In this document: positions 8,760-58,110 of the stretch, one piece after another
Layout: every line of letters starts with the position of its first letter
Position numbering within the stretch: the first letter of the stretch is position 1
Source: Dehalococcoidia bacterium
Lineage (GTDB): Bacteria; Chloroflexota; Dehalococcoidia; UBA6926
Direction: 5' to 3'
DNA: 64,000 bases
Assembly (NCBI GenBank): GCA_965205915.1
Contig: OZ242191.1
Coordinates: forward strand, 1,070,003 to 1,134,002
Program-made: the position numbers and the translations under genes
Notes under the pieces: generated by a model
Told to the model about the DNA's origin: nothing
What the model saw: the letters and a program-made list of their open reading frames with translations, nothing else
Databases searched by the model: none

Positions 8760-8817
8760 AAGTCGCGCTGGATTCCGTCTTTCGCCGGAATGAGGGAACG
8801 AACCCGTCGTTGGCGTA

Positions 8818-20123: not shown

Positions 20124-20214
20124 CTCGCAACGCTACTCAGTGGCGGTGTGGTGGTCAAGGATGGCGGGGGCGGCTTAGGCTGAGCGCCGCTGTCTCATTG
20201 TTGTTCAACGTTGC

Positions 20215-21651
20215 TCAGGGGGCGGGATCAGTCACTTCGCAGTATGGCACGCTAGGATGCCAATTACTAATTGGCGCCCTCCGCCAGCTAGCAGGAGCGC
20301 ACCCTGTGAGCAGATTGTTTCGGAGGTAAAGTTCTTTCAAATTGGTCAAGTTAACCAGTTCCGGGGGAATCTCGCCGCTCAATTGGTTCTTCTTGAGGTC
20401 GAGGTATTCCAAGCTGGTCAATTTGCCCAATTCAGTCGGGATTGGACCACTCAACTCATTCTCCGACAGGTTTAGACGCGTCAGGTTGACTAGGTTTCCC
20501 AATTCCTTTGGAATCTCGCCAGATATTTGGTTGTCTTGTAGCCTAAAGTCGTCGAGTCGGGTCAGAGTTGTCAGTTCCACAGGTATTTGGCCCGTCAGTT
20601 GGTTTTCGGATAGTAGGAGCGACTCCACGTTGGTCAAATTGCCCAGTTCCGATGGTATCTCTCCGGTCAACCGGTTGTAATCCAAATACAACCAGTTCAG
20701 GTTGGTCAGATTGCCTAGTTCCACCGGAATCTCTCCGCTCAACTCGTTGCTTCGGAGAACCAACCCTGTGAGATTGGTCAGGTTGCCCAGTTCCGATGGT
20801 ATCTCTCCGGTCAACTGGTTGTTTGCGAGAATCAACCATTTCAGGTTGGTCAGGTTGCCCAGTTCCGATGGTATCTCTCCGGTCAACTGGTTGTGATCCA
20901 GATACAACCAGTTCACGTTGGTCAAATTGCCCAGTTCCGATGGTATCCCTCCGGTCAACTGGTTGTTTGAGAGATACAACCAGTTCAGGTTGGTCAGGTT
21001 GCCCAGTTCCGATGGTATCTCTCCGGTCAACCGGTTATTTGCGAGAATCAACCATTTCAGGTTGGTCAGGTTGTCCAGTTCCGATGGTATCTCTCCGCTC
21101 AACTGGTTGTTTTCGAGAACCAACACTGTGAGATTGGTCAGGTTGCCCAGTTCCGATGGTATCTCTCCGGTCAACTGGTTGTCATTGAGATACAACTCCG
21201 TGAGATTGGTCAGGTTGCCCAACTCCGCCGGGATCTCGCCGTTCAGTTCATTTTCTGCCAAGAATAAAGTAGTGACGCGCCCCATGTCGTTGGTGGTAAC
21301 GCCATACCACTCTCCCAATGGGGCATCGGTCAACCAATTGTCGTTGCGTGTCCAGTTACCGCCGTCGGTCGACAAATAGAACGCCTCCAGAAAAGGCCTC
21401 TCGTCTATGGGAACCAACGTTGGAGTGGGGACGACTGTTGAGGTGACAGTCGGCGGCGGTGGTATACGTGTGGGCACGGCGGTCACTGTGGGCGGCGGTG
21501 TTGCTGTTGGCGTGGGGGTTGGGAGGGGCCTGCCGCAGGCGATGAGCGCAATCGAAAAGGCGAGCGCGATGACAAGGAGCAGCGCCACTCGTTGCGCGTT
21601 TCGACGCACGCTGTGACCTTTGATCGGTTCGTTTCTTCGAACTACATCCAT
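20215..21651 (-). CDS. Plant-type LRR surface lipoprotein, array copy 2
   Basis: 478 aa with the same architecture. The internal repeats are near-identical at the nucleotide level. Confidence 0.85.
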   Translation of the reverse strand: MDVVRRNEPIKGHSVRRNAQRVALLLVIALAFSIALIACGRPLPTPTPTATPPPTVTAVPTRIPPPPTVTSTVVPTPTLVPIDERPFLEAFYLSTDGGNWTRNDNWLTDAPLGEWYGVTTNDMGRVTTLFLAENELNGEIPAELGNLTNLTELYLNDNQLTGEIPSELGNLTNLTVLVLENNQLSGEIPSELDNLTNLKWLILANNRLTGEIPSELGNLTNLNWLYLSNNQLTGGIPSELGNLTNVNWLYLDHNQLTGEIPSELGNLTNLKWLILANNQLTGEIPSELGNLTNLTGLVLRSNELSGEIPVELGNLTNLNWLYLDYNRLTGEIPSELGNLTNVESLLLSENQLTGQIPVELTTLTRLDDFRLQDNQISGEIPKELGNLVNLTRLNLSENELSGPIPTELGKLTSLEYLDLKKNQLSGEIPPELVNLTNLKELYLRNNLLTGCAPASWRRAPISNWHPSVPYCEVTDPAP

Positions 21652-21660
21652 CCCGCAACG

Positions 21661-21866
21661 CTACTCAGCGGCGGTTTGTTGGTCAAGGATTGCGGGGAGT
21701 TGGCCGGTGCCGTAGAGGTCGGTGCGGCCGTACACGTCCATGTAGTTGATGCCGGATGCGGCGAGTTGGACGATGGCCTCGCCGGGGCCGGGGGCGGGAT
21801 CCTCGACGTCCGTGTAGGTGAGGACATCGGGCCCGCCGTATTGGGTTATTTGGACTGCTTTCATGG
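21661..21866 (-). pseudogene. Duplicated 5' fragment of qor (about the first 68 codons)
   Basis: The translation 'MKAVQITQYGGPDVLTYTDVEDPAPGPGEAIVQLAASGINYMDVYGRTDLYGTGQLPAILDQQ...' and the DNA are nearly identical to 18396..18575. Confidence 0.7.
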
Positions 21867-21967
21867 GGTTGTTGCTCCTTGGGTTGGTTGGTGGCGGGGC
21901 GGCACATTGCGCCGCTCGAAAGGCGGGATACGTCAGGTTGTAAGCATCGCATAATTGGGTGTGCGGG

Positions 21968-23755
21968 TCATGGGGCGTTCTCGCAGAATGGCAGATATAG
22001 CTTTTCGAAATCATTCGCCCTGATATTTCTCAACTCAGAGGGTATACAGCCCACAATTTGGTTTCCGCTAATTTCAAGCCACGTTAAGTTGACCAGGTCT
22101 GCGAGACGCGCTGGTATTTCTCCCGTGAACTCGTTATTGGAGAGGACCAACGATTTCAGACTGGTCAAGTTGCCCACATGTTCCGGTATTTCTCCGCTCA
22201 GCGCATTGCCTCGGAGAAACAGTGCCATGAGATTGGCCAGGTTACCCAATTCAGGTGGCAGCTCTCCGCTCAAGTCGTTGTTGGAAAGGATTAATGTTTC
22301 CAAATTGGTCAGGCGGGCAAGTTCCTTTGGTATAGCACCGCTCAAATCGTTGTGGCTAAAGGACGCCCAGGTCAAGCTGGTCAGGTTTCCTAGTTCTGGT
22401 GGTATCTCTCCGCTAAGGTCGTTCCCGCCAAGGTTCAACGACGTCAGGTTGGACAGCAAACCAAGTTCCGCCGGTATATTTCCATGAATTCGATTTCCCT
22501 CGATGCCGAGGGACTCCAGGTCATTCAGGTTTGCCAGTTGCTTCGGTATCTCTCCTGTCAGTTCGTTGAGTGAGAGACTCAGAAACACTAGATTGGCCAA
22601 CCTGTCAATTTCCGGGGAGATTTCCCCGGTCAATTGGTTCTCCGCGAGTGACAACAATTCGAGATTGGACAAGTTCAAGAGCTCATCGGGTATTTCGCCG
22701 CTCAACTGGTTTATGCTCAGATCCAGAGATCGCAAGTTGGTCATTTTCCCAAGTTCAGGCGGTATCTCACCACTCAATTGATTTGTGCTCAGATTCAATG
22801 ACTGCAAATTGGGCCAGTGCGCAAGTTCAGGCGGAATCTCACCGCTAAATTGATTGGAGCTCAGGTTCAACGATTTCAAGTTGGCCAGTCGAGTGAGTGC
22901 AACCGGTATTTCGCCACCCAATTGATTACTGTACAGCGCCAGTTCCTCTAGCTGCGTCAGCCTAGTCAGTTCCACCGGTATCGATCCTTCCAGGTTGTTA
23001 GCACCTAGCGACAGAATCGTCAAGCCGGTTAGTCTGCCAATGCTCGGCGGAATCTGTCCCTCAAAATCGTTGCCGTCCAAAAGCAGCACTCTCAAACCTG
23101 TCAGTTCGGTAAGTTCCATGGGAATGTCCCCGCTCAGCAGGTTTTGGGACAATATGAGTTCTTGCAGGTTTTCCAGGTTGGTGAATTCCCCTGGAATCTC
23201 ACCACTCAAATGGGTGAACCGGAGATACATATGAGTAAGGTTCGACAGTTGGCCCAATTCCGGTGGGATCTCTCCGCCCAAGTAGTTGTGCGAAAGCAGC
23301 AACTTTCTCAGGTTGGTTAAGCTGCCCATTTCCGGTGGGAGGGAACCAACTAACCAATTGTCACCAATGTCCACTTCTACGACGCGCCCCGTTTCGTCGG
23401 CGGTCACGCCATACCATTCTCCGAGAGGAGCGTCGGTTAGCCAGTTATCATTGCGTTTCCAGTTGTCTCCCTTGGTCGATAAGTAGAGCGCTTCAAGCAC
23501 CGGCCTATCTACAGACATAGGAATTGCCATCTGAGTGGGCGCAGGTATCGGCGTTGGCGTGGGTATCGCGGTCGATGTGGGCGCGGGTGTGGCGGTCATC
23601 GTGGGTGGGGGCGTTATCGTCGGCTCTTCATCGCCATCGCAAGCCGCAGGCAGAGCGAAGAGGCCTAGCGCGATGACAAGGAGCAGCGCCGCTCGTTGCG
23701 CGCTTCCACGCACACTGTGACCTTTGATCGGTTGGTGTGCCCGAACTATGTCCAT
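21968..23755 (-). CDS. Plant-type LRR surface lipoprotein, array copy 3
   Basis: 595 aa. Lipobox 'LPAAC', N-cap 'DRPVLEALYLSTKGDNWKRNDNWLTDAPLGEWYGVT', about 18 LRRs, and a C-cap 'GCIPSELRNIRANDFEKLYLPFC'. Confidence 0.85.
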   Translation of the reverse strand: MDIVRAHQPIKGHSVRGSAQRAALLLVIALGLFALPAACDGDEEPTITPPPTMTATPAPTSTAIPTPTPIPAPTQMAIPMSVDRPVLEALYLSTKGDNWKRNDNWLTDAPLGEWYGVTADETGRVVEVDIGDNWLVGSLPPEMGSLTNLRKLLLSHNYLGGEIPPELGQLSNLTHMYLRFTHLSGEIPGEFTNLENLQELILSQNLLSGDIPMELTELTGLRVLLLDGNDFEGQIPPSIGRLTGLTILSLGANNLEGSIPVELTRLTQLEELALYSNQLGGEIPVALTRLANLKSLNLSSNQFSGEIPPELAHWPNLQSLNLSTNQLSGEIPPELGKMTNLRSLDLSINQLSGEIPDELLNLSNLELLSLAENQLTGEISPEIDRLANLVFLSLSLNELTGEIPKQLANLNDLESLGIEGNRIHGNIPAELGLLSNLTSLNLGGNDLSGEIPPELGNLTSLTWASFSHNDLSGAIPKELARLTNLETLILSNNDLSGELPPELGNLANLMALFLRGNALSGEIPEHVGNLTSLKSLVLSNNEFTGEIPARLADLVNLTWLEISGNQIVGCIPSELRNIRANDFEKLYLPFCENAP

Positions 23756-26659: not shown

Positions 26660-27787
26660 TCACTCTGAATCGAGATACGGAAGAAGGTCGGCCGGTTCCA
26701 TAGCTCTGCGTTCTACCTCTACCCGTAACTCCAATTCGCACTCTATTGGCTTCGGTAAATTGTCACCGCGAAGCTCCCCTTGCAACACTACAGTGCAAGG
26801 CTCAGTAGATCCAACAAACAGCTCATTGTCCGTCCATGCATAGTCACTCGGGCGGACATTTCCGAAGTCGATTTCAATCTCCCAGCGGTCAGTGAGTTCC
26901 CTGACCTTAATGTCTATGTCATCGGGACTACTTGCGGCCAGCCCATGTATATTGCCGAAGGGTGTTCTTGATGGGGGATTACTATACCAGTCTTTGATGA
27001 TTAGCCCTTCAGTCTTGGTGGCGTGACCGACAAAGCGCACTTGTCGAGCTGGTACATCGCTTGTGTTTTCGAGTCGCAGGCCAACCGAATTGACGAGTGC
27101 CCTCTCGGCAGCGTACAAGATCACTTCCCGCGGATAATTGTTGTTGATTAGGGGGTCTATGCTCAAAAAGGAGCGGCGCTGTTGCGGGAATATGCTATCA
27201 GCGAGTCGCGGTTCAAGGATTTGTGACCGAACGGCGTGGGGCGATGGCAGGACTTCCCTTTTTCTGTTGTCGGCCCACTGGAGCGAGAGATCAGGTGTGA
27301 GTTCGGCGGCAACCTCGGCGCCCATTTTCGCTATCTCATCAGGGTTTGCAACTCTTGTTGAGCTGCCGCCTCTTATGAAGACGTTGTTCGCACCCAATTT
27401 GCCAAACTTTTGCTTTAGGTATGTGGGGCGATGCTGTTGCGGGATTTCAATGACCCCGATAGAGACGCCCTCTATCGGAACCGCGTAGTAGGAGAAATCA
27501 ACATGGCGCTGCGTCTTACCGTTGACGAACTGTTGAAGGTTAGAATCGTCCAAGTGATCCTGAACGCCGACCACCTCACTGCGCCCACCCTTGGCCTCCT
27601 TTACTCCAATAAGGATGTACGCCGTTGTTCGTCGCCATGAATTGGCGAAGGCCAGTATGTCCTTCAGTAGCTCGGCCTTCGCACCGATATCCGCATTAGC
27701 AAAGGGATACTGTTCTGACTTGAAATCTAGGGCCGTCCCCTCAGGTTCATGCAGCAGAGACTCCAGAAACGATAAATCAATAGGCAT
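26660..27787 (-). CDS. AlbA_2/Schlafen-like (PF04326) domain protein with an unknown C-terminal domain; candidate defense gene
   Basis: 375 aa in a low-GC stretch. N-terminal 'EGTALDFKSEQY...ILAFANSWRRTTAYILIGVKEAKGG..VVGV' matches the AlbA_2 signature. Confidence 0.6.
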   Translation of the reverse strand: MPIDLSFLESLLHEPEGTALDFKSEQYPFANADIGAKAELLKDILAFANSWRRTTAYILIGVKEAKGGRSEVVGVQDHLDDSNLQQFVNGKTQRHVDFSYYAVPIEGVSIGVIEIPQQHRPTYLKQKFGKLGANNVFIRGGSSTRVANPDEIAKMGAEVAAELTPDLSLQWADNRKREVLPSPHAVRSQILEPRLADSIFPQQRRSFLSIDPLINNNYPREVILYAAERALVNSVGLRLENTSDVPARQVRFVGHATKTEGLIIKDWYSNPPSRTPFGNIHGLAASSPDDIDIKVRELTDRWEIEIDFGNVRPSDYAWTDNELFVGSTEPCTVVLQGELRGDNLPKPIECELELRVEVERRAMEPADLLPYLDSE

Positions 27788-44546: not shown

Positions 44547-46931
44547 ATGTGGCGGAATCCAACCCGACTACTTGTACTAACGGCCATGATGGCCGTCATG
44601 TTAGTTGTGTCACCGGCAGGGTTTGCGGCGGCACAGGACGGAGAGGGCCGTGTGCTGGGGTCTCCCGGCATCCTGACGCCGGATTATCCGTACTTGGCGC
44701 CGGACGTTTTGGCGTTCCGGGATCAGACGGCGAAGCTGCTGTCCGGCCGCGTGTCGCTGATGGCGCAGGGGCTTGACGCGCAGACGGGCGGGATCGGCGG
44801 TAGTGAGGCGCGCAGTGGACCAGTAGCATCAGGACAGGCCTCGCCTGCCAGACAGGGTGGCGTGCTCGTCCCCTACCGTGATCCTTCGGCGCGATTCAGT
44901 CGGAACATCTTGATCCCGACGGATTTCAGCACTGCGCCGTTGCAGACAGAGCCGCATCTGGCAGTTGATCCGTTCGATTCCGACCACATCATCGCGGGCA
45001 TGATCGACTATAACTTCCCGGGCGTCACGACGTATGTGACGTATGACGGGGGAGTGACGTGGGAAGGGCCGGCAGTGATCAAGCGTCCCCGCGAGGAGCT
45101 GGGTAGCGGCGGCGACCCGGTGCTGGCATTCGATCGCGAGGGTTCGGCATTCGTAACGTTCATCTCGCTGGACATTGAGGAGTTCACGGTTGGGAACCTG
45201 TTGGGTACCGCAGTTGTGTCCAGCATGGCGCTGAGCACATCGAGCGATGGCGGATTCACATGGACGGAGGGCACACCGGCGGTGCGGAGCCAGGTGTCGT
45301 CCGATTTCACAATCGACCAGTTGGGGCGGACGCGCGGCACGGTGGCCATCGGTTTCCTGGACAAGCCGTGGCTGGCCGTCGGGCCGAATTCGGATGACCC
45401 CGATTCAGACATCATTTACATCACGTATACGCATTTCAACACGACGTATCGGATCTCGTACACGGATGAACTCGCGTTCCTGAGCAATCCCGTTCTTGAG
45501 ACGACCATTGAGATGGTGAAATCGGAGGACGGGGGCATAAGTTGGTCAGACCCCATGGTGGTCAGTCCAATCATTCGGCAGGTCTTCGAGTTCGGGGGGT
45601 CCGATCAGGAGAACCTGAATGACGCTCCAAGCCAGCTACAGTCGCCGGATACGATTCCGGGCGGGCAGGTCATTGAGAGCCTGAAGCGGATTTTGCAGGG
45701 GTCCTATGTGGCGACGCATACGGACGGGAGCGTATACGTTTCGTGGATGGACTCGACGGACGACGGGCCGTTTGAGGGTATTGCGCAGATGTTCGTGGCG
45801 CGATCGGACGACGGCGGTGACACATTCACTGACGGACAACGGGCGACGAATTACCTTGAGCTTGGGTTCTCGCCACGCAGCAGCTTCTATCGCTTCTGGG
45901 GCTCGACGTTTTCTCGCATCGCCATTGGGCCGAATGGCGAGTTGTATATGGTGTTCTGCGCCGCGCCGGCGGGTGATCCGTCGGACGACTCGGACGTGAT
46001 GATGGTGCGTTCAATGGACGAAGGGCGGACGTGGAGCAGGCCGCTCCAGATCAATGATGATCGAACATCGGGTATCCAGTTCTTCCCGGCGGTCGATGTT
46101 TCTCCAAATGGGAAGGTTCACGTGATGTGGGGAGACACGCGCGACGATCCGGGCATCGATCTTCGTTATCACATCTATTACGCGGTCTCCGAGGATCAGG
46201 GAGAGTCGTTCGGCATCAATTCCCGTGTGACGGACTCCGCATCGAACCCGAACTACGGCTTCCCCGGCGGACAGTTCATCGGCGACTACTTCGGGTTGGC
46301 GGCGACGGATGAGGACGTCTACATGGTGTGGGCGGATACACGTCTTGGCGAGTTCCAGGGGACGAATCAGAAGATCGGCTTTGCGCGGATGCGGCAGATG
46401 CCAAGTCCATCGATCTTCCTTTCGCCGTCACGCGGGGCATCGGCCACGACGGTGACAATTCAGGGTTTCAATTTCCAGGCCGATCAGGACATATTCATTC
46501 TCGTTAGCGGAGTCCTCGTATCCACCATCGAGTCGAATGATGAGGGGCGATTCACAACGCAGCTCTTCTTCCCAACTGCGGGAGAGGGGGCGCAGTCCGT
46601 TGGCGTGTTTGACGCTTCCGGCAACGCGGCGACGGCATCGTTCTATAACGAATTCGGCTTTGACAACCTCCAGCAAACCGCAGCAGACATCGAGGACATC
46701 AAGAACGCGCTCAGCTCTGACACGTTGGCAAGCATCCAGGAGGCGCTGGATCGAATCGAGTCGGGCGAGAGTGGCGGTGACGACGAGTCCGGCGGGTGCA
46801 GCACGGGCAACGCGACGGCGGACATGGCCCTTGTCGGTTTGCTTGCGCTGGGCATCATCGGGGCGGCGCAACTGAATTCGCGCAGACGACGGCGCGAGAA
46901 CGACAGCGACGGAGGCGAGGCCGATGGGTAG
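44547..46931 (+). CDS. Secreted BNR/Asp-box repeat (sialidase-like beta-propeller) protein with a Cys-containing C-terminal sorting-signal-like tail
   Basis: Signal peptide. Five Asp-boxes: TYDGGVTW, SSDGGFTW, SEDGGISW, SDDGGDTF and MDEGRTW. C-terminus 'SGGCSTGNATADMALVGLLALGIIGAAQLNSRRRRR'. Confidence 0.65.
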   Translation: MWRNPTRLLVLTAMMAVMLVVSPAGFAAAQDGEGRVLGSPGILTPDYPYLAPDVLAFRDQTAKLLSGRVSLMAQGLDAQTGGIGGSEARSGPVASGQASPARQGGVLVPYRDPSARFSRNILIPTDFSTAPLQTEPHLAVDPFDSDHIIAGMIDYNFPGVTTYVTYDGGVTWEGPAVIKRPREELGSGGDPVLAFDREGSAFVTFISLDIEEFTVGNLLGTAVVSSMALSTSSDGGFTWTEGTPAVRSQVSSDFTIDQLGRTRGTVAIGFLDKPWLAVGPNSDDPDSDIIYITYTHFNTTYRISYTDELAFLSNPVLETTIEMVKSEDGGISWSDPMVVSPIIRQVFEFGGSDQENLNDAPSQLQSPDTIPGGQVIESLKRILQGSYVATHTDGSVYVSWMDSTDDGPFEGIAQMFVARSDDGGDTFTDGQRATNYLELGFSPRSSFYRFWGSTFSRIAIGPNGELYMVFCAAPAGDPSDDSDVMMVRSMDEGRTWSRPLQINDDRTSGIQFFPAVDVSPNGKVHVMWGDTRDDPGIDLRYHIYYAVSEDQGESFGINSRVTDSASNPNYGFPGGQFIGDYFGLAATDEDVYMVWADTRLGEFQGTNQKIGFARMRQMPSPSIFLSPSRGASATTVTIQGFNFQADQDIFILVSGVLVSTIESNDEGRFTTQLFFPTAGEGAQSVGVFDASGNAATASFYNEFGFDNLQQTAADIEDIKNALSSDTLASIQEALDRIESGESGGDDESGGCSTGNATADMALVGLLALGIIGAAQLNSRRRRRENDSDGGEADG

Positions 46932-49527
46932 GCTTTCGGTCATGAACCGTTTCCGCGTCGGCCGCTCTTTACGGTTGGCAACAGTGTTGGCTGTGGTGTT
47001 GACGCTGGGCGTGATTGCGGGGGGCGGCTCTGTCCTCGCGCAGAGTCCAGATGAGTACGACGCGCCGCATGAGCAGCCCGGGCCGGCTGTCGATACGATC
47101 CATTACCGCTCGTTCAACGTTGACCTCGCGCCGCAGGAGTTGCAACGAGATGAGATGGATATGTACATCTTCAATCTCAAGACGGATGCTGCGCAGGCGC
47201 TGCGGGGTGATGACTCAATCGAGTTGTATGAGGCTCCGGCCTCGACGATTTCGCTGATACTGAATCCGGCGCCCGCGCCCGAAGGTCAGCTGAATCCGTT
47301 CTCGCTGACGGAGGTGCGGCGCGCCATCCATCACCTGGTCAATCGCGAGTTCATTACGCAGGAGATCTACAAGGGCCTCGCGCGTCCGATGTATACACAC
47401 GTCAACCCATTCGACTTCGATTACACGGTCGTTGCGGAGATGTTGGCGCGGCAGGACCTCGCATATGACCCGGAGCGGGCGCGGGCGACGATAGCGTTGG
47501 CGATGACGGCGGCCGGGGCAAGCATGGTGGACGGGGTCTGGAACTATGACGGGGAGCCTATTCGACTGAAGTTCATCATTCGCGTGGAGGATGAACGTCG
47601 CGACGTGGGCGACCTGATTCGCGCCGAGCTGGAGAGCGCAGGATTTCTTATCGCGCCGATCTATCACCAGTTCGCGCCGGCAATTCTGACGGTCTACAGC
47701 ACAGACCCACAGCTATTTGAGTGGCACATGTACACGGAGGGATGGGGACGCGGGGCGGCGGAACGCTATGATTCCGCGACGATCAATCAGATGGCCGCGC
47801 CGTGGCTCGGAAATATGCCGGGCTGGCAGGAATCGGGACTCTGGCAGTACGAGAACGCGCGGCTGGATGACCTGGGGCAGCGGATTTTCCGCGGCGATTT
47901 CCAGGATAAGGCGGAACGGAACGCGCTGTACCAGGAGGCGACGCGGGTATCGGTGGAGGAATCCGTCCGCGTCTGGCTGGCTACGATCATTACGACGTTC
48001 CCGGCAAGCTCAGGCATCGTGGGTGTGACGGAGGACGTGGCGGCGGGGCCGAAGTTGCAATGGACGTTCCGCGAGGCGTACGTGCCGGGAGAGGACACGC
48101 TGACCGTCGGGCACCTGTGGGTGTGGACGGAGCGCAGCACATGGAATCCGGTGTCCGGCTTCGGGGATATTTATAGCAGCGACGTGTGGCGCAACCTCGC
48201 CGATCCGGCTATGACACGCCATCCGTTTACGGGAATCCCCATCGCAATGCGCGCCACCTATGACGTTGAGACGTCGGGGCCGAACGGCAAGCTGGCTGTG
48301 CCTGCGGACACGCAGATTTGGGACGCGAATGCGGGAGAGTGGACAGGCGTGGGCTCCGGCATAGAGGCAACGTCAAAGGTCACATTCGATTACAGCAAGT
48401 TCTTCCAGGCGCCGTGGCATCACGGGCAGCAGATCACGATGGCGGATCTGGTCTATGACATCTATCAGACGTTTGACATGGTGTACGGGCCGGAGAAGTC
48501 GCAGGTGGAGTTCGCGCTATCGACGGTCTCCAGACCGCTGCTCGACACGGTTCGTGGATTCCGGGTGCTGGATGAGAACCGCATCGAGGTCTATGTGGAC
48601 TACTGGCACTTTGTGGACGATTACATCGCCGAGTACGCCGTGCCGGGCAGCATGACAATGCCGTGGGAGGTTCTGGCGGCGATGGATGACATCGTATTCG
48701 ACCAGCGCCGCGCCGCCTACAGCGATACGTCCGCGCAACGATTCGGCGTGCCATGGCTCAGCCTGGTGCAGGATCGCGACGCGCGCACGGTGGACAGGAC
48801 GCTTGCGCAGTTCGAGCGGGAGGGATTCGTTCCGACGGCGGCGCTGACCATTGGCGGGGAAACCCTGGTGACGGAGGCGGAGGCACTGGGGCGATACCAG
48901 GCCGCGCAGGCATGGTTTGATGAGCGCAATCTGATGGTGATCAGCAACGGGCCGTTCTACCTGGAGCGGTTTGATCCGCCGGCGCAGTTCGCCGAACTCA
49001 AGGCGTTCCGCGATGAGAACTATCCGTTCAAGCCCGGCGATTGGTATTTCGGCGCGGCTGATCCGATCAGCGTCGAGCCGGAAAGCGTCAGCGGCATCGC
49101 CATCGGGCAGGCGCTGGATGTGAGCGTGAACGTTGAGGGGCCGGGCGAGTTGGGCGTGCGCTACGTGTGGTCGGACCCGGCGACGGGGAACATCGTCAAG
49201 TCGGGCGACGCGACGGCGGCGGACGGCGGGTTTGTCGTGCCGTTCTCGGCAGGTGAGACGGCGGCGCTTATACCCGGCCTGTATCGACTATCCATCACCG
49301 CATATAGCGATGAGCTTTCGACGGTGTCAGAACGCGTGCTAACGGTGGAGGCATCGGCCACCGGCACGACGACGGACACGGGCGATGGCACAACCACGAC
49401 GCCTGTGGACGGCGGTGGCGATAAGTCCGGCGGCTGCGGCTTCGGCGCGCCATCAGCAGACATGCTAATCATCGTGGGGCTGCTGCTGGGGATGGTGGGG
49501 GTTGCGCGGCGGCGGAGTGGATCGTGA
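46924..49527 (+). CDS. Family-5 solute-binding-protein-like surface protein with the same C-terminal Cys/TM/Arg tail
   Basis: Signal peptide. SBP_bac_5-like blocks. C-terminus 'SGGCGFGAPSADMLIIVGLLLGMVGVARRRSGS'. Confidence 0.55.
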   Translation: MGRLSVMNRFRVGRSLRLATVLAVVLTLGVIAGGGSVLAQSPDEYDAPHEQPGPAVDTIHYRSFNVDLAPQELQRDEMDMYIFNLKTDAAQALRGDDSIELYEAPASTISLILNPAPAPEGQLNPFSLTEVRRAIHHLVNREFITQEIYKGLARPMYTHVNPFDFDYTVVAEMLARQDLAYDPERARATIALAMTAAGASMVDGVWNYDGEPIRLKFIIRVEDERRDVGDLIRAELESAGFLIAPIYHQFAPAILTVYSTDPQLFEWHMYTEGWGRGAAERYDSATINQMAAPWLGNMPGWQESGLWQYENARLDDLGQRIFRGDFQDKAERNALYQEATRVSVEESVRVWLATIITTFPASSGIVGVTEDVAAGPKLQWTFREAYVPGEDTLTVGHLWVWTERSTWNPVSGFGDIYSSDVWRNLADPAMTRHPFTGIPIAMRATYDVETSGPNGKLAVPADTQIWDANAGEWTGVGSGIEATSKVTFDYSKFFQAPWHHGQQITMADLVYDIYQTFDMVYGPEKSQVEFALSTVSRPLLDTVRGFRVLDENRIEVYVDYWHFVDDYIAEYAVPGSMTMPWEVLAAMDDIVFDQRRAAYSDTSAQRFGVPWLSLVQDRDARTVDRTLAQFEREGFVPTAALTIGGETLVTEAEALGRYQAAQAWFDERNLMVISNGPFYLERFDPPAQFAELKAFRDENYPFKPGDWYFGAADPISVEPESVSGIAIGQALDVSVNVEGPGELGVRYVWSDPATGNIVKSGDATAADGGFVVPFSAGETAALIPGLYRLSITAYSDELSTVSERVLTVEASATGTTTDTGDGTTTTPVDGGGDKSGGCGFGAPSADMLIIVGLLLGMVGVARRRSGS

Positions 49528-49552
49528 CGCCTAAGAACCCGGGAGCCGACAA

Positions 49553-51172
49553 GTGACCACAGCAGAAGAAACCCAACTGTGGGATGAATACGTCGCGGCC
49601 GCGAAGACGTACTTGGCGACGGGTACGCTTGAAGAATACGAACTGAACTATAAGCGCGAGATAGGGGGACTGCTAGGACAAGCACGGAACGCCATCTTGA
49701 AGGGTTACGCCAATTGGATTGATCCTCTGTTTCTTCCATTGAGGCCTAGACAGGGTCATCCTGTGAACTTTAGGGCAATAAATGGATTTCGAAGGTGGTA
49801 TGGTCAACAGCCAGTTGAAGCCCATGAAGCGCTGAGTGTTTTGTGGACCGATAACCAGATTCCCGTCGCTGAACGAATTCGCGGCTTTAGGGAGTACGTA
49901 CCTGATTATCTACTAACCCTAGGCGTGGGCTCATTGACAACCTTCATCGCTTTCCTTCTCATGGGCATAGATGTGGAAGATTATCCGCCGTTCAACACTC
50001 GGCCGTTCAATAGAGCTTACGATCGAACTGGATATGCGAGGGCCGCTAATGACGCGGACGAAGCAGGGCGATACGAGCACGCGCTAGGCTTCCTCGATCG
50101 CTTTATTGCAGAAGCTAGCAAGCGAAGTGTTGATCTCAACAGTCGCCTCAAAGCGCAATCAGTAGTGTGGCAAGTGGCAAATCCTCAAGACTGGGGCGGC
50201 CGCGTACTAGAAGAAGAAAATAACATTTACGCTCCCCGCCTGGAGCAGGTTGAGGCCGAATCTTCTCTCCCGGACCTCGCCGCCAGTCTCTACCTCCCGA
50301 CTGAGTTCCTGCAGAACATCGAGACGCTGCTGGATGAGAAGAAGCAGGTGATTTTCCAGGGGCCGCCGGGGACAGGCAAGACGTATGTGGCGCAGGCGTT
50401 AGCGGAGCATCTGGCGGGTTCGCCGGAGTGTGTGACGTTGGTGCAGTTCCACCCGTCTTATTCCTATGAGGACTTTGTGCAGGGTTATCGGCCCACTTTG
50501 AGGGACGGGCAGCCCGGCTTTGAGCTACGCGATGGTCCGCTCCTGAGGGCAGCAGAGCAGGCACGGCAAGAACCGAACGCCAACCATTACCTGATCATTG
50601 ATGAGATCAACCGCGGTAACATCGCCAACGTGTTTGGCGAACTGTATTTTCTGCTGGAATACCGCGACAAGCAAATCAACCTGCAATATGATGACAAGCC
50701 GTTCTCGCTCCCCAAGAACCTGTTCATCATTGGCACCATGAACACTGCTGACCGGTCAATCGCACTCGTCGATCTTGCTTTGCGGCGACGATTCTACTTT
50801 GTCGAATTTCATCCCGACATCGAGCCGGTGCGAAGCGTCCTCAGAAAGTACTTGGAAGCGCAAGGTCTCGAGGAAATGCTTTGGGTTGCCGATGTGGTTG
50901 AAGCTGCCAATGAAAAGCTCAGGGAAGACCGTCATGCCGCTATCGGGCCAAGCTATTTCATGCGGGATGATCTGGGTGAGGAGACGGTCGAGCGAATTTG
51001 GAAGCACAGTGTTCTTCCGTACATCGAGGAACGGCGTTTCGGCGGCAATGCAGTGTCGGATGAATTCAGTCTGGATAGTCTGCGCCGTGAGGTAAATCGG
51101 AGCCTGGCTCAGTCGGATGACGCTGACGTGAGCGTGGATCGTGGCGAGGATGCGGCTGCCTCCGAGGATTAA
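49553..51172 (+). CDS. mcrB: McrB-family AAA+ GTPase (restriction subunit) with a non-canonical ~300 aa N-terminal domain
   Basis: Walker A 'FQGPPGTGKTY', 'LIIDEINRGNIANVFGELYFLLEYR', 'FIIGTMNTADRSIALVDLALRRRFYFVEF'. Low-GC region. Confidence 0.85.
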   Translation: MTTAEETQLWDEYVAAAKTYLATGTLEEYELNYKREIGGLLGQARNAILKGYANWIDPLFLPLRPRQGHPVNFRAINGFRRWYGQQPVEAHEALSVLWTDNQIPVAERIRGFREYVPDYLLTLGVGSLTTFIAFLLMGIDVEDYPPFNTRPFNRAYDRTGYARAANDADEAGRYEHALGFLDRFIAEASKRSVDLNSRLKAQSVVWQVANPQDWGGRVLEEENNIYAPRLEQVEAESSLPDLAASLYLPTEFLQNIETLLDEKKQVIFQGPPGTGKTYVAQALAEHLAGSPECVTLVQFHPSYSYEDFVQGYRPTLRDGQPGFELRDGPLLRAAEQARQEPNANHYLIIDEINRGNIANVFGELYFLLEYRDKQINLQYDDKPFSLPKNLFIIGTMNTADRSIALVDLALRRRFYFVEFHPDIEPVRSVLRKYLEAQGLEEMLWVADVVEAANEKLREDRHAAIGPSYFMRDDLGEETVERIWKHSVLPYIEERRFGGNAVSDEFSLDSLRREVNRSLAQSDDADVSVDRGEDAAASED

Positions 51173-51185
51173 GCCGACGCGATAA

Positions 51186-52394
51186 ATGAAGCGCCAGATC
51201 GACCTTGCGGAATATCAAGAACGCGGGCCGTATCAACTCTCCGTAGACGAACGGGACGCGCTATCCGCCAGTCTGTCTCTAGATTCGATCAAGCCGGTGG
51301 AGGGCGCTGAGGATAGGTATTTTCTAAAGGCCGGGTCCAGAGTGGGCGCGGTTGAAATTGGCGATCTGTCAGTCCTGATTCAACCAAAGATCGACATCCC
51401 ACAATTGCTGTCGCTGGCTTGCTACGCGATAGGGGCGTACAAGCCACAAGTTGACCGACTCTTTGATTTTGGCGAACGTGTGACCCTGCCGGACGCGCTG
51501 GCGTTGGCGTTAGGAAATGCGGCAAGAAGAGCCTTCACTCGCGGGCTGCTGCACGGGTACCGCGCAAGAGAAGAAGCTCTGCAGACTGTGCGCGGTCGCA
51601 TTCGTTTTGCCGATCAGATACGCAGCAGGTACGGAATCGCGCCACCGGTCGAGGTTCGGTATAACGAATTCACAGACGACATCCTGGAGAATAGGCTCGT
51701 GAAGGCGGCGGCGTATAGAATTGGCCGACTCCCTCTCCGCTCCGCTCAGGCTCGCCGCGGCCTCGGATGGATTGCCGGGATGTTGGACAACGTTTCATAC
51801 AAGGAGTTCTCGCCTCGTAGCGTGCCACCCGTCACCATGAATCGTCTCAATGAGCACTACAGCGATGTGATTGCCCTTTCGCAGCTCATCCTAAGACACG
51901 GCGCATTCGAGTCTGAGCGTGGCGGGATTCGCGCCTCCGGTTTCCTGATGGACATGAATGTCGTGTTCCAGGAGTTCGTGACGACGGCCCTTCGGGAAGA
52001 ACTGAAAGACACTACTGGCACGCTCCGCTCAGACAAGGAGCTTTCAGGCCAACGCAGCCTCTTTCTGGATGAGGGGCGGGGCGTCAGGCTTGAGCCTGAT
52101 CTGACGTGGTGGCAGGACGGCATTTGCACATTCGTCGGCGATGCTAAATATAAGAACCTGGCGGACCGCTCCGCCCCGAATGCCGATCTTTACCAACTTC
52201 TGGCCTATGCGACGGCCTTGGATCTGCCGGGTGGAACGCTTATCTACGCGCAAGACAAGGCTGAGCCACGCACGTACGCCGTCAACTATGCTGGCAAGCG
52301 GCTGTCAGTGGTTGCCCTGGACATTTCACTACCACTTGAGGAGGTGCTTGAGCAGGTGCGGGATATTGCACGTCGATTGAAGAGTTCAGGTTAG
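51186..52394 (+). CDS. mcrC: McrC-family PD-(D/E)xK endonuclease subunit
   Basis: 402 aa immediately downstream of mcrB. 'EPDLTWWQDG...FVGDAKYK' D...(D/E)xK motif near the C-terminus. Confidence 0.75.
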   Translation: MKRQIDLAEYQERGPYQLSVDERDALSASLSLDSIKPVEGAEDRYFLKAGSRVGAVEIGDLSVLIQPKIDIPQLLSLACYAIGAYKPQVDRLFDFGERVTLPDALALALGNAARRAFTRGLLHGYRAREEALQTVRGRIRFADQIRSRYGIAPPVEVRYNEFTDDILENRLVKAAAYRIGRLPLRSAQARRGLGWIAGMLDNVSYKEFSPRSVPPVTMNRLNEHYSDVIALSQLILRHGAFESERGGIRASGFLMDMNVVFQEFVTTALREELKDTTGTLRSDKELSGQRSLFLDEGRGVRLEPDLTWWQDGICTFVGDAKYKNLADRSAPNADLYQLLAYATALDLPGGTLIYAQDKAEPRTYAVNYAGKRLSVVALDISLPLEEVLEQVRDIARRLKSSG

Positions 52395-52429
52395 TCACGG
52401 GTTCCGGCGTTGTAGCCATTTGAGGCTTT

Positions 52430-52533
52430 GGATTCCTCGCTGCGCTCGGAATGACAGGCAAATGGATAGGGTTGGCGTTACGGGGTTTGGTTGGGAAATG
52501 GAGATCAAGATTCCCGCTTTCGCGGGAATGACG
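52430..52533. repeat. Composite REP element (B at 52430..52456, A at 52509..52533)
   Basis: Same B-spacer-A organisation as 28813..28960. Confidence 0.75.
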
Positions 52534-52636
52534 GGGATGGGATGCGGGGCGTGGGTGGTTGTTCGTTTTCTATGCCTACCGCCATCGGAGTTCTTGCTTC
52601 CGCCGCCTAGTATGCCGAACGCTGTAAACTGTAGCG

Positions 52637-55024
52637 GTGATGGCAGCTACACGGCCTGCTACTGACAACGATTCTTCTGCGGACGCTGCGACACCTACGG
52701 GCGGCGTTGCGGTGGTTGATTCTGCGTCTGGGGATTCCTCCACGGGGGATACATCGCGGGTGGGATTTGGGGAGCTTGAGGCTCGGTTGCGGGCGCATCG
52801 GCTGCCGGCGGAGCGGATTGAATCTATTCGCACGGCGTTTGAGACGGCTGAGCGCGCCCATGAGGGGCAGTTCCGCAGGTCCGGCGATCCGTATATCTGT
52901 CATCCGCTAGAGACGGCGCTCATCCTGACCGATATCGAGATGCTGGACGCGCCGACGTTGCAGGCGGCGCTGCTGCATGACGTCGTCGAGGACTCTCCCA
53001 TGACTCTCGATGAGATGGTGGGGCTTTTCGGGGCAGAGGTCGCGGGGCTTGTGGACGGCGTGACGAAGCTGTCCCGGCTCGCCGCGCAACCGCAGCAGGG
53101 CGCGGGGGGAGAGGCGGCGGCGCAACCGTCACACGCGAGCGTTTTCCAGGCGGAGAGCCTGCGCAAGATGCTCGTCGCGATGGCGCAGGACGTGCGCGTG
53201 GTGCTCATCAAGCTGGCGGACCGCCTGCACAATATGAGGACGCTGGATGCGCTGCTGCCGGAACAGCGTAATCGAATATCGCTGGAGACTCGAGATATTT
53301 TTGCGCCGCTCGCGCATCGGCTGGGCATCGACAGTATCGAGTCCGAGTTGAATGATCTGTCGTTTACGCACCTGGAGCCTGCGCGGCATCGGCGCGTTGC
53401 GAACCTGGTGGCGACGCGGCTGACGGAGCGGGAGACGGGGGTGCGCGAGGCGCTGAGCGTGCTGACTGAGACGCTGACGGCGCAGGGATACAAGAACATC
53501 GAAATCTCCGGCAGAACCAAGAGCGTCTATAGCATCGCGCAGAAGATGGAACGATACCGGGAGATGGGGCGGGAGTTCGAGGACATCAACGATCTGCAGG
53601 CCGTGCGCGTCGTGGTGAAGGACGTGCAGGACTGCTACGGGGTGCTTGGCATCGTGCATGGCATGTGGCGGCCCCTGCCCGGCCAATTCGATGACTATAT
53701 CGCCAACCCTCGCGAATCAGGGTATCAGTCGCTCCACACAACAGTCGTGACGCCGGACGGCGATCCGCTTGAGGTGCAGATTCGAACGGTGGAGATGCAC
53801 GAGACGGCGGAGTATGGCATCGCGGCTCACTGGCGCTACAAGGAAGGCGCGGGGGGCGGTCAGTTCGACGACCGGATCACGTGGTTGCGGCAGCTGTTGG
53901 ACTGGCAGCGGGACGTGATCGGCGCGCAGGAGTTCGTGGATCAGCTCAAGCGCGAGATTCTCGTCGACCAGGTTTATGTGTACACGCCGCGCGGTGAGAT
54001 TCGGGAGCTGCCGGCAGGCTCGACGCCACTGGACTTCGCGTTCCGTATCCATACGGATCTCGGTTATGGGACGGCAGGCTCGAAGGTTAACGGGCGGATG
54101 GTGTCGTTGAGTTACACGTTGAAGAACGGCGACACGATCGAGATTATTTCGTCAAAGCAGCCGAAAGGGCCGAGTCTCGACTGGCTGAACCCCGACCTGG
54201 GGTACGTGCGAACGGAACTGGCGCGATCCAAGATTCGGCACTGGTTCCGCGTGCAGGAGCGTTCAGAGAGCACGACGCGCGGGCGTCAATTGTTGGAACG
54301 GGAGACGCGACGGCTGGGTGTGCCGCTGGATCCGCAGCATCTCGCGACGTTGTTCGGCTATCAGACGGCGGATGAGTTCATCCTGGCGCTGGGAACGGGA
54401 CAGGTCGGCGTCAATCAGATTGCGGGTCGACTCGCGCCGCCAAAGGAAGAGGCGGACACGATCCCTGTCCGTCAGTCGAGCGGGGAGCTTTCGGTGAACG
54501 TGCAGGGTTTGGGCGCGACGCCTGCTCGATCCGCGCCGTGCTGCCGCCCAATGCCGGGCGAAGAGATCGTTGGGTTTATCACACGCAATCGGGGCGTCAC
54601 CGTGCATCGGCAGGACTGCGCCAATATTCGGAATGAGGACGAGCCGGAGCGCCTGATGGACGTGAGCTGGCCGGATTTCGAGCAGAAATTCCCATCAAGC
54701 GTCGTTATTTCATCGATGGATCGCGTCGGGCTTTTGCGCGACATTACGACACTGGTGTCAGCCGATCACATCAACATCACCGGGGTGCGTGATAGACACA
54801 ATGCTGATTCCACAGTTACGATAACGCTCACGGTTGAAGCAAGCGGCCTGCCGCAAATCAGCCGGATGGTGTCGCGTCTGGAGGACCTGCAGGGCGTCAT
54901 CAATGTGTACCGGACATCAACGCACAGCCCGCGCGGGGGTCGGGGCTCCGGACAGCAAAACGGAGGAACGGCGCGGGCGGCACAGGGCGGAAAGCCGCAA
55001 AGCAGCAAGGAACGTAAGGGATAA
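52637..55024 (+). CDS. relA: Bifunctional (p)ppGpp synthetase/hydrolase Rel/SpoT
   Basis: HD domain 'HPLETALIL...HDVVED', synthetase 'YQSLHTTV', TGS and C-terminal ACT. Acidic low-complexity N-terminal extension. Confidence 0.9.
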   Translation: MMAATRPATDNDSSADAATPTGGVAVVDSASGDSSTGDTSRVGFGELEARLRAHRLPAERIESIRTAFETAERAHEGQFRRSGDPYICHPLETALILTDIEMLDAPTLQAALLHDVVEDSPMTLDEMVGLFGAEVAGLVDGVTKLSRLAAQPQQGAGGEAAAQPSHASVFQAESLRKMLVAMAQDVRVVLIKLADRLHNMRTLDALLPEQRNRISLETRDIFAPLAHRLGIDSIESELNDLSFTHLEPARHRRVANLVATRLTERETGVREALSVLTETLTAQGYKNIEISGRTKSVYSIAQKMERYREMGREFEDINDLQAVRVVVKDVQDCYGVLGIVHGMWRPLPGQFDDYIANPRESGYQSLHTTVVTPDGDPLEVQIRTVEMHETAEYGIAAHWRYKEGAGGGQFDDRITWLRQLLDWQRDVIGAQEFVDQLKREILVDQVYVYTPRGEIRELPAGSTPLDFAFRIHTDLGYGTAGSKVNGRMVSLSYTLKNGDTIEIISSKQPKGPSLDWLNPDLGYVRTELARSKIRHWFRVQERSESTTRGRQLLERETRRLGVPLDPQHLATLFGYQTADEFILALGTGQVGVNQIAGRLAPPKEEADTIPVRQSSGELSVNVQGLGATPARSAPCCRPMPGEEIVGFITRNRGVTVHRQDCANIRNEDEPERLMDVSWPDFEQKFPSSVVISSMDRVGLLRDITTLVSADHINITGVRDRHNADSTVTITLTVEASGLPQISRMVSRLEDLQGVINVYRTSTHSPRGGRGSGQQNGGTARAAQGGKPQSSKERKG

Positions 55025-56257: not shown

Positions 56258-56438
56258 TTTCCACGGATCGCTCGACTTGATTGGTCGAAGGCGGCCCTAA
56301 GAGGCCGCATGGGCCCCCGCCTTCGCGGGGGATTCGGGTTGGACACCCTCCCATGTGACATCTCCGTTTGCGCCCTGCGTGACGTTCGCGTTACAACCCC
56401 AACGGACGACCAAGCACAAACCGATGGGGGATATTGCC

Positions 56439-56996
56439 ATGACCACGACGAATGAGAATGAGGCGACCAGTGTTGATGAGGAGCGCCGGCAGGAAGCCGC
56501 TACTGAACAGGCTGGCGGAGACGCTGACGGGCACGCGGAGTCGGACAGCGGAGAGGCATCGACGGAGGTGCAGACGTCCGTAGACGACTTACAGTCTGAG
56601 TTGGCGGCGCGGGATGAGCGAGTGTCCGCGCTTGAAGAGCAGGTGATCTCGCTGGAGCGGGAGCTCTCGTCGACGGTATCGCGATACCGACTGGCGTTGT
56701 TGGATGCCGCGCCGGAGGTGCCGGGCGATCTCGTCGGTGGGGAGTCGGCGGAGGAGCTGGAGGCCTCACTCGCAAAGGCGAAGGGCGTTGTCGAGCAGGT
56801 GCGTTCCCGATTGCTGGAGGGGATGGAATCCGCTAGCCGGGGTACTGAGCGGTCCGATGACGGTGATGCGACGGGGCAGGACACCGAGCCTGTCGTTGGA
56901 CGGATACCGGCGGGAGCGCCGGCGCGTAGCATGGACGACGGCTCGGCGGATCTGAGCGCGCGGGACAAGATTGCGCTGGGGTTGGAGCGGTTGTAG
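56439..56996 (+). CDS. Acidic coiled-coil hypothetical protein
   Basis: Protein-like ORF. Start assumed at MTTTNENEATS. Strongly acidic with heptad stretches. Confidence 0.3.
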   Translation: MTTTNENEATSVDEERRQEAATEQAGGDADGHAESDSGEASTEVQTSVDDLQSELAARDERVSALEEQVISLERELSSTVSRYRLALLDAAPEVPGDLVGGESAEELEASLAKAKGVVEQVRSRLLEGMESASRGTERSDDGDATGQDTEPVVGRIPAGAPARSMDDGSADLSARDKIALGLERL

Positions 56997-57047
56997 GGGG
57001 GCGGGCTCCTCGGTTCCGAGAGCCACGAAGGTCAACTCGCTGTACAA

Positions 57048-57414
57048 TCGGAATATGGGACAGTTCGAAGTGCGAATGACCATTTCCAATCTCTCCGGTG
57101 AGAATGAGCGGGACGTTGATGCCCTTGTGGACACCGGATCGCGGCGTACAATGCTGCCCGGCGACCTGCTGCGGCAGATGCAGACACCCGTTAGATGGAC
57201 GGGCCAATTTGAGATGGCCGATGGCCGCGTGGTTGAGATGCCCGTAGGTGAAACGCGCGTTGCGGTGAACGGAATGGATGTGGCAACGCAGGTCATCTTC
57301 GGCCCGGACGGATGCCAAGCAATGCTTGGCGCGATAACCCTGCAAGAACTGGAGCTCGTCGTCGATGTCCCAAATGAACGGCTTGCACGGGATGTGGGGC
57401 CGTTTCACGTGTAG
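57048..57414 (+). CDS. Retropepsin-like (clan AA) aspartic protease, paralog 3
   Basis: 'ALVDTGSRRTMLP' DTG motif. Aligns with the 16156 and 16541 paralogs. Confidence 0.55.
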
Positions 57415-57420
57415 CAACAC

Positions 57421-58110
57421 TCAGGCATTCCGCAGGTTAATCACGTGCCCTTCACCTACGGCCCTCTTAAGTTGGGCACCAAGGTTCCCATCAAGGTCGC
57501 CAAGGTAGACGTCAACATCCTGTTCCTTGAGATTTTGAATGACTTCTGAATAGTCCCGATCCTTCGCAATGAAGACGAGTATTGTTTCTTGCGGCTCTTG
57601 GCCACAGTCACTTCTGACCTGGGAAATGAGTTCCTCGTCCATATTGATGTCGTCTTCCCATACACGCCACCCGGTTTCCGTAAGATTTTCGGTTGCCGCA
57701 GCCTGGTTCACTCCGGCAAAAGCCTTGAACCTCTGATATGAGGTACCGATAAAACGTTTTTGTAAGGCAGTCCTGATTCCGTCACTTACACCCTGAACTC
57801 TATTGGCTGCTCTTCCTACGTTTTGGAAGTCCCAGAAAACTAATAGTCGTGTCCGTCCAGTCGTCTTCTTGGCCATTGGCCGCCTCCTTCTAAAGAACTC
57901 CGGTGTGAATTTGCGTTCCGTCGCAATGCTGTAGAACTTCGCCAAGTTCTTGGCATCGGGAGGAGTTGCGCCCGTCTCCCATCGAGACAAGGTATTCTGT
58001 GGGACACCGAGCAATTCGGCCATTGCGGTCTGTTTTAGCTCCAGTTTTGTTCTAAGCTCCACAAGCGCCTGGTGCCGGAACTCATACCTGTCCCGCTCCT
58101 CTGTTGTCAC
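57421..58110 (-). CDS. HTH-XRE (Cro/C1) fused to a NYN (PIN-like, LabA) nuclease domain
   Basis: N-terminal 'QTAMAELLGVPQNTLSRWETG' HTH. C-terminal 'LLVFWDFQNV...LVFIAKDRDYSEVIQNLKEQDVDVYLGD' NYN acidic residues. Low GC. Confidence 0.6.
   Translation of the reverse strand: MTTEERDRYEFRHQALVELRTKLELKQTAMAELLGVPQNTLSRWETGATPPDAKNLAKFYSIATERKFTPEFFRRRRPMAKKTTGRTRLLVFWDFQNVGRAANRVQGVSDGIRTALQKRFIGTSYQRFKAFAGVNQAAATENLTETGWRVWEDDINMDEELISQVRSDCGQEPQETILVFIAKDRDYSEVIQNLKEQDVDVYLGDLDGNLGAQLKRAVGEGHVINLRNA

Follow-up and report, generated by a model that had tools for sequence, protein, structure and literature searches.

The stretch of DNA analysed here (the window) comprises 64,000 nucleotides of a Dehalococcoidia bacterium (Chloroflexota; GenBank assembly GCA_965205915.1, contig OZ242191.1, positions 1,070,003 to 1,134,002), and the element in question is a McrBC-type restriction module whose McrB protein carries an N-terminal domain of an unannotated family. 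Two plus-strand open reading frames (ORFs), mcrB directly upstream of mcrC with a gap of 13 nt, form an operon layout (Table 1) and lie exactly at 49553-52394, where an earlier model-made reading of the letters (the original prediction) had placed them. That reading had also recognized a McrB with AAA+ GTPase motifs and a McrC with a PD-(D/E)xK nuclease marked by the string "VGDAKYK", and both assignments were upheld by Pfam, NCBIfam and PDB matches as well as by the motifs themselves. Residues 266-414 of McrB match AAA_5 in Pfam (E = 4.8e-22), residues 238-436 match the NCBIfam McrB model PRK11331 (E = 9e-47; the differing N terminus keeps the match below the equivalog cutoff), and residues 232-443 match the Escherichia coli McrB chains 6hz4 and 6ut6 (E ~1e-47). 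Both Walker motifs (A and B) are in place, as is the NxxD signature specific to McrB. McrC matches the Pfam family McrBC (PF10117) over its full length (E = 4e-51) and E. coli McrC chain 6hz4_M with E = 2e-8, P-D305 and D319-A-K321 aligning to the PD-(D/E)xK motif, the latter within "VGDAKYK". Judged from its sequence, the pair is an intact McrBC module with all catalytic motifs present; a decayed system was ruled out, all motifs being intact and frameshifts absent. A promoter and terminator scan of 49300-52700 gave no signal above chance, and exact-sequence look-ups of McrB and McrC returned no record.

Table 1. Features of the McrBC locus, its borders and other parts of the window (positions in the window)
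Feature	Position	Strand	Description
SBP_bac_5 surface protein gene, upstream anchor	46924-49527	+	C-terminal transmembrane segment, Arg-rich tail (Pfam)
Swapped cassette	49516-50287	+	772 bp, intergenic spacer and McrB residues 1-245; without counterpart in relative L164 (blastn)
McrB-like gene	49553-51172	+	539 amino acids (aa), GTG start; candidate N-terminal sensor domain, linker, AAA+ GTPase (ORF; AAA_5 and McrB matches)
N-domain of McrB	49553-50182	+	Residues 1-210; predicted all-alpha, 11 helices; unannotated family
Putative helix-hairpin-helix (HhH)	49904-49960	+	Helix 118-122, L-G124-V-G126, helix 127-136; HhH assignment inferred
Pro-rich loop YPPF	49982-49993	+	Residues 144-147, 3' of the putative HhH
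McrB AAA+ GTPase domain	50264-51172	+	Residues 238-539 (NCBIfam and PDB sequence matches, motifs)
Walker A	50360-50383		GPPGTGKT, McrB residues 270-277
Walker B	50600-50605		DE, McrB residues 350-351
NxxD signature	50741-50752		N397-T-A-D400 of McrB
McrC gene	51186-52394	+	402 aa; DUF2357-type N-terminal part and PD-(D/E)xK nuclease
McrC nuclease residue D305	52098-52100	+	Alignment to 6hz4_M
McrC nuclease residues D319-A-K321	52140-52148	+	Alignment to 6hz4_M
Composite REP-like (repetitive extragenic palindromic) repeat	52430-52560	.	Two palindromic units; core GGATTCCCGCTTTCGCGGGAATGACG; palindrome ATTCCCGCTTTCGCGGGAAT at 52510-52529
RelA/SpoT gene, downstream anchor	52637-55024	+	relA-rpsT-Metallophos synteny kept in relatives
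Three tandem leucine-rich repeat (LRR) protein genes	18636-23755	-	495, 478 and 595 aa; guanine-cytosine (GC) content 52-53%, against ~60% for the genome
Schlafen AlbA_2 domain gene	26660-27787	-	GC 52%
Second variable spot, 3' of Metallophos gene	56297-58110		HTH_3 gene in the window, GC 51%

Alignments A1 and A2 set the limits of McrB's N-terminal domain (the N-domain) at residues ~1-210, followed by a variable linker of ~35 aa, with the AAA+ region starting at about residue 238. The N-terminal region had originally been given as ~300 aa long, a length that did not hold. The statement that it falls outside the known McrB readers did: no Pfam match to DUF3578/McrB-N, EVE, YTH, B3, Mrr_N or HARE-HTH was found on the window N-domain (E <= 0.1) or on 80 homologues (E <= 1), and the Pfam scans matched no McrB-N-type domain. 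At the same thresholds, residues 1-235 of McrB fall into no Pfam family, and each of the 80 family members gave noise only. NCBIfam and PHROGs returned nothing for the N-terminal region, and PDB sequences contain no match to the N-domain even when searched with an 80-sequence profile. PADLOC gave no match N-terminal of residue 180, where one restriction-enzyme model begins, upstream of the AAA+ domain. The N-domain was not found in IMG/VR viral contigs, INPHARED phages or PLSDB plasmids.

A scan that covered each species by one genome gave 256 relatives of the N-domain, and a protein search gave 41 metagenomic homologues. The layout and taxon counts that follow refer to the best 80 of the 256 loci, all of which come from metagenome-assembled genomes. 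Among these, even the closest relatives are no more than ~49% identical to the window domain. Dehalococcoidia account for 54 of the 80 loci, Caldilineaceae for 11, Acidimicrobiia for 7, Chloroflexota and Binatia for 2 each, and SAR202, OM1, Latescibacterota and Spirochaetia for one each. At ~77 loci the N-domain is part of, or next to, an ORF for a McrB GTPase that is followed downstream by McrC, and the mcrB-then-mcrC arrangement is found at about 75. It stands alone before the GTPase, as in the window, at about 16 loci and behind another N-terminal domain, here called ExtA, at ~39. Other N-terminal extensions also precede it, with EVE and HARE-HTH among them confirmed by Pfam in database representatives, and in the Caldilineaceae loci L006, L011, L014, L029 and L051 two tandem copies of the N-domain (residues ~14-218 and ~246-442) precede the GTPase. 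At L060 (5887-10601), an N-domain-GTPase protein (543 aa) and an ExtA-GTPase protein (609 aa) are encoded in a row and followed by one McrC, which suggests that hexamers of two specificities are formed, either mixed or as alternatives. Conserved N-domain proteins of 217-218 aa also occur without any effector (P0006 at L081:6001-6657, P0003, P0005 and P0009); the neighbours of the L081 gene are sugar-metabolism genes (AP_endonuc_2/xylose-isomerase-like, FGGY kinase and a major facilitator superfamily transporter).

The strongest evidence of the analysis is comparative genomics. Contigs of close RelA relatives (75-99% identical), labelled L163-L167 and L082, were compared with the window, using blastn at the DNA level; a RelA scan of metagenome contigs yielded relatives of <=52% identity only, which were of no use for synteny. 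The relatives have a common backbone, i.e., a BNR gene, the SBP gene, a slot, relA, rpsT and a Metallophos gene, and the cargo of the slot differs. The SBP protein is 83% identical to its L082 counterpart, and its gene is collinear with the DNA of L164, L165, L166 and L167 at 77-96% identity. In order of decreasing RelA identity, the slot holds McrBC with McrB in frameshifted pieces and an ExtA N terminus (L163, 99%), McrBC with ExtA (L164, 97%), an HNH_2 enzyme and a 4HBT gene (L165, 92%), a C5 DNA methyltransferase and a putative endonuclease (L166, 88%), a 4HBT gene only (L167, 85%), and the N-domain fused to HNH_2 (L082, 82%; protein P0008). The slot between the surface-protein gene and relA is a defence hot-spot. 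The neighbourhood check proposed with the original prediction thus found the flanking genes kept and the cargo variable across all six contigs, and the lateral acquisition it had favoured is supported by the states of the slot (empty, McrBC, HNH enzyme, restriction-modification based on 5-methylcytosine [m5C]).

Within this slot, part of the window sequence is replaced in L164. The DNA of the two is collinear on either side, at 96% identity as far as 49515 and at 90% again starting with 50288 (blastn), and the cassette in between is the one without counterpart (Table 1). The GTPase part of the window McrB is 83% identical to that of L164 and 93% to the L163 fragment, and McrC is 85-91% identical to the McrC proteins of L164 and L163. 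The McrB N termini of L163 and L164 consist of ExtA, an ~280-aa helical domain unrelated to the N-domain; ExtA as a diverged duplicate of the N-domain was rejected (hhalign probability 0.3%), and neither a hidden ExtA nor a second copy of McrB or McrC was found in the window. In L082, the flanking proteins are 82-93% identical to those of the window and the N-domain only 44%. ExtA is likewise fused to HNH_2 in P0309, whose HNH part shares 64% identity with that of the L082 protein, and to TIR in P0410. All four combinations of the sensors N-domain and ExtA with the effectors McrB/McrC and HNH are therefore found within one clade. Because the same motor and McrC occur with ExtA in sister strains and the same slot carries an N-domain-HNH protein, the N-domain is very probably an interchangeable target-recognition module, and the alignments mark it as a cassette exchanged in situ among close strains. 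The original claim that this domain decides the target gains comparative support from the same two facts, namely, ExtA on a near-identical motor and N-domain-HNH in the same slot.

Two further slot contents deserve mention. The HNH_2 enzyme of L165 (L165:6175-7152) shares 55% identity with P0008 in its nuclease half and has an ~170-aa N terminus unrelated to the N-domain and ExtA, which may make it the slot's third sensor cassette. In L166 (4325-7939), the C5 DNA methyltransferase lies beside a 392-aa protein with a Cys/His-rich C terminus, and the two probably form a Type II restriction-modification pair. Since this m5C pair occupies the same slot, where one sister strain would make m5C, others carry modification-dependent nucleases instead. 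Neither the window ORFs nor Pfam revealed a methyltransferase gene between the surface-protein gene and relA. A restriction-modification system of the LlaJI kind, directed at unmodified sites, is therefore unlikely, and the absence of an adjacent methyltransferase is consistent with a modification-dependent rather than a LlaJI-like system.

The AlphaFold2 model of the N-domain, built from alignment A1, consists of eleven helices and has high confidence scores (predicted local distance difference test [pLDDT] 92.5; predicted template modelling score [pTM] 0.88). Its best structural match is the 8-oxoguanine (8-oxoG) glycosylase TM1821 (Ogg2 type, PDB 3n0u; 155 residues aligned, score 7.9), followed by phage PaMx11 gp46 (8z2m; 6.1), two entries of QNG1/DUF2419 (7u07; 5.7 and 5.3), human OGG1 (5.4), Clostridium Ogg and archaeal AGOG (4.7 each), and Mag1, EndoIII and MUTYH (~4). 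We take QNG1/DUF2419 to be glycosylase-like in character; QNG1 acts on a free nucleotide. According to the model, the N-domain fold most resembles HhH DNA glycosylases. The gp46 protein is aGPT-Pplase2, which belongs to a class described as glycosylase-like HhH proteins acting on modified thymidine in DNA (PMC8989533). The putative HhH and the YPPF loop of the N-domain are placed where an HhH-GPD domain would have its HhH and Gly/Pro loop; G124 and G126 are at least 90% conserved in the family alignments, P145 and P146 are invariant or nearly so, and among charged residues the same applies to E30, K34, E170, D182 and E187. The aromatic residues W55, W98 and Y174 are conserved as well. Judged by motif spacing rather than superposition, the loop is followed by R/N-x-x-x-F with no conserved Asp, and no Lys follows the hairpin, where the window has S-L and the consensus T-R. 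The AlphaFold check suggested with the original prediction thus gave a confident all-alpha model with glycosylase-like neighbours, but a Foldseek search of the model against PDB was non-significant (best E = 0.59; the top weak matches were OGG1, MjOgg and SsOgg).

The reading that we favour, with a probability of roughly 0.6, is that the locus encodes a functional Type IV McrBC system whose target is chosen by a swappable, base-inspecting and probably non-catalytic domain derived from the glycosylase fold. By analogy with E. coli McrBC, McrB would form a GTP-driven AAA+ hexamer into which McrC docks, and McrC would cut DNA via its PD-(D/E)xK site. The ~210-aa N-domain would pick the target, gripping the DNA backbone by its HhH-like hairpin and inspecting a flipped-out modified base in a pocket. 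Base excision would probably not take place, since the domain seems to lack the canonical catalytic Asp and Lys; the model thus points to a glycosylase-derived reader of DNA or bases without excision. In this scheme we infer DNA binding, base flipping, the lack of catalysis and the modification dependence of the system. A broader version, which we regard as tentative and somewhat less than an even bet, makes the N-domain the founder of a new class of sensors for modified DNA, a base-flipping reader that comes from the HhH glycosylase fold and in which excision is lost or perhaps kept. Together with the fold-orphan ExtA, it would form combinatorial cassettes on McrB GTPase, HNH and TIR effectors at one hot-spot, retuning the range of modified foreign DNA that is targeted.

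Several observations weigh against the favoured reading. Sequence profiles give the glycosylase link no support, whether the 80-sequence profile is compared with PDB or the members with Pfam, where neither HHH nor HhH-GPD matched the window protein or the 80 members; the apparent absence of the catalytic Asp and Lys is a matter of motif spacing; in most relatives the N-domain is not first and is placed between another N-terminal domain and the GTPase, so that its role might be that of an accessory and not of the primary reader; and 218-aa standalone versions are found in a non-defence neighbourhood. If the structural likeness were a chance product of helical packing, the N-domain would still be the specificity module and would represent a new DNA-binding fold. 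The silence of the profiles and the non-significant Foldseek search stand on the side of this alternative, and the list of glycosylase neighbours and the position of the putative HhH and YPPF loop on the other; we consider it unlikely, at about one chance in five.

An accessory role, in which the N-domain senses a free modified nucleotide or small ligand, or serves as a regulatory or assembly element, and DNA is recognized elsewhere, appears improbable. Another domain does stand in front in most relatives (ExtA in the loci; EVE and HARE-HTH in database representatives), and the structural neighbour QNG1 has a free nucleotide as its substrate. However, the N-domain is the sole non-motor domain of the window McrB and of at least about 16 other McrBs as well as the sole partner of HNH in P0008, it replaces ExtA one for one between sister strains, and the N-domain and ExtA McrBs of L060 use one McrC. 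Equally improbable is an active DNA glycosylase whose abasic sites recruit or license cleavage by McrBC (or HNH): although the top structural match is an 8-oxoG glycosylase, the five charged residues named above are invariant or nearly so and standalone versions are conserved, no Asp is conserved after the Pro-rich loop (R-x-x-x-F in the consensus), no Lys follows the hairpin, and fusions to nucleases and TIR are a pattern typical of passive sensor domains.

The composition and borders of the module agree in part with the original description, which had it sharply lower in GC than its flanks and lying between a surface-protein gene and a composite REP element. The drop in GC is real (55.45% versus 60.2% in the rest of the window) but moderate rather than sharp, being ~2 standard deviations below same-sized sliding windows, 5% of which are as low. 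The N-domain has the lowest value (51.5%; the remainder of McrB has 55.8% and McrC 57.2%), and the slot cargo in general has a GC below that of the backbone. Codon usage, another check proposed at the outset, follows the same trend: GC at third codon positions is 0.59 and 0.635 in the module genes versus 0.78 and 0.75 in the flanking genes. Both neighbours are also as described, with the SBP_bac_5 gene upstream and the palindromic repeat downstream. This repeat delimits the variable slot on its downstream side, and homology to the relatives resumes 3' of it, at 52614-52772 (blastn). A degenerate copy at the same place in L082 indicates that the repeat is part of the backbone and not cargo. Its core GGATTCCCGCTTTCGCGGGAATGACG has 8 matches in the window, where 0.58 would be expected, and a composite unit of ~100 nt is common to three copies. 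The palindrome ATTCCCGCnnnnGCGGGAAT followed by GAC(G) is found at 8772, 11445, 28937, 30218, 30982, 37769, 52510 and 62007; these copies are intergenic, five exact and three degenerate, and some lie inside the ~100-nt composite unit.

Other features were noted in the window and its relatives. Low-GC islands besides the module are the LRR genes (18.6-23.8 kb), the Schlafen AlbA_2 gene (26.7-27.8 kb) and an HTH gene (57.4-58.1 kb). The LRR genes encode eukaryote-like proteins, a type known from host-associated bacteria; together with the names of related bins, they suggest what is presumably a sponge-associated Chloroflexota source. The Schlafen AlbA_2 gene may be laterally acquired or defence-related. 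The BNR and SBP proteins have a common type of tail (encoded at 46780-46931 and 49400-49527, respectively) composed of "SGGC..x..ADM", a hydrophobic helix and an Arg-rich stretch, which may be a common C-terminal sorting or anchoring signal. The second variable spot, 3' of the Metallophos gene, carries HSDR_N-like, NucS-like, NYN or gag-aspartyl-protease-like genes in the relatives (L163:7468-9995, L165:11743-13754, L166:11563-13710 and L167:11728-13195).

Set against known systems, the McrBC kind is familiar and the sensor domain is new and named by no database. Like E. coli K-12 McrBC (EcoKMcrBC), the module is a two-gene operon with McrB first, has Walker A, Walker B and NxxD, and carries PD-(D/E)xK in McrC. 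In contrast, the reader of the E. coli system is DUF3578/McrB-N, whereas that of the window is all-alpha, ~210 aa long and without sequence similarity to it. The McrB readers characterized so far are McrB-N, YTH, EVE and B3 only, according to a 2025 review of restriction systems (PMC12707154). The McrBs of Thermococcus gammatolerans (YTH) and Staphylothermus marinus (EVE/PUA) and LlaJI.R1 (B3) are likewise built from a GTPase motor that is conserved and an N-terminal DNA-recognition domain that can be exchanged (PMC12707154), but these readers have beta-rich PUA-like or B3 folds, unlike the predicted helical, glycosylase-like N-domain. A published McrBC census does not describe the N-domain family (PMC11090510), and literature searches for McrB or McrBC with a glycosylase or HhH-GPD domain found no report of such a fusion. 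The N-domain differs from HhH-GPD glycosylases (Ogg2 type TM1821) in having neither sequence similarity to them nor a Pfam HhH-GPD match, in apparently lacking the catalytic Asp and Lys, and in being fused to nuclease effectors instead of acting as a repair enzyme. PaMx11 gp46 (8z2m) and QNG1/DUF2419 (7u07) derive from the glycosylase fold but handle modified bases outside DNA repair; they are enzymes with active-site residues of their own and have no detectable sequence-level homology to the N-domain. The layout of P0008 (N-domain and HNH_2) and P0309 (ExtA and HNH_2) resembles the sensor-HNH layout of SRA-HNH TagI and EVE-HNH VcaM4I, although the sensors of P0008 and P0309 are neither SRA nor PUA/EVE.

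McrBC targets are set by the N-terminal reader, and the locus would add a reader family to the four characterized types, with a predicted fold that points to base flipping of the glycosylase type. The relatives provide a natural experiment in which the same motor and nuclease are found with another reader and the same reader on another nuclease, making specificity swapping testable, and swapping readers could provide new enzymes with which DNA modifications can be mapped. If the recognized base were a hypermodified pyrimidine or a deazapurine, as hinted by the structural neighbours, the N-domain would be a new reagent-grade reader. The slot between the surface-protein gene and relA documents a defence hot-spot in poorly studied, presumably sponge-associated Chloroflexota.

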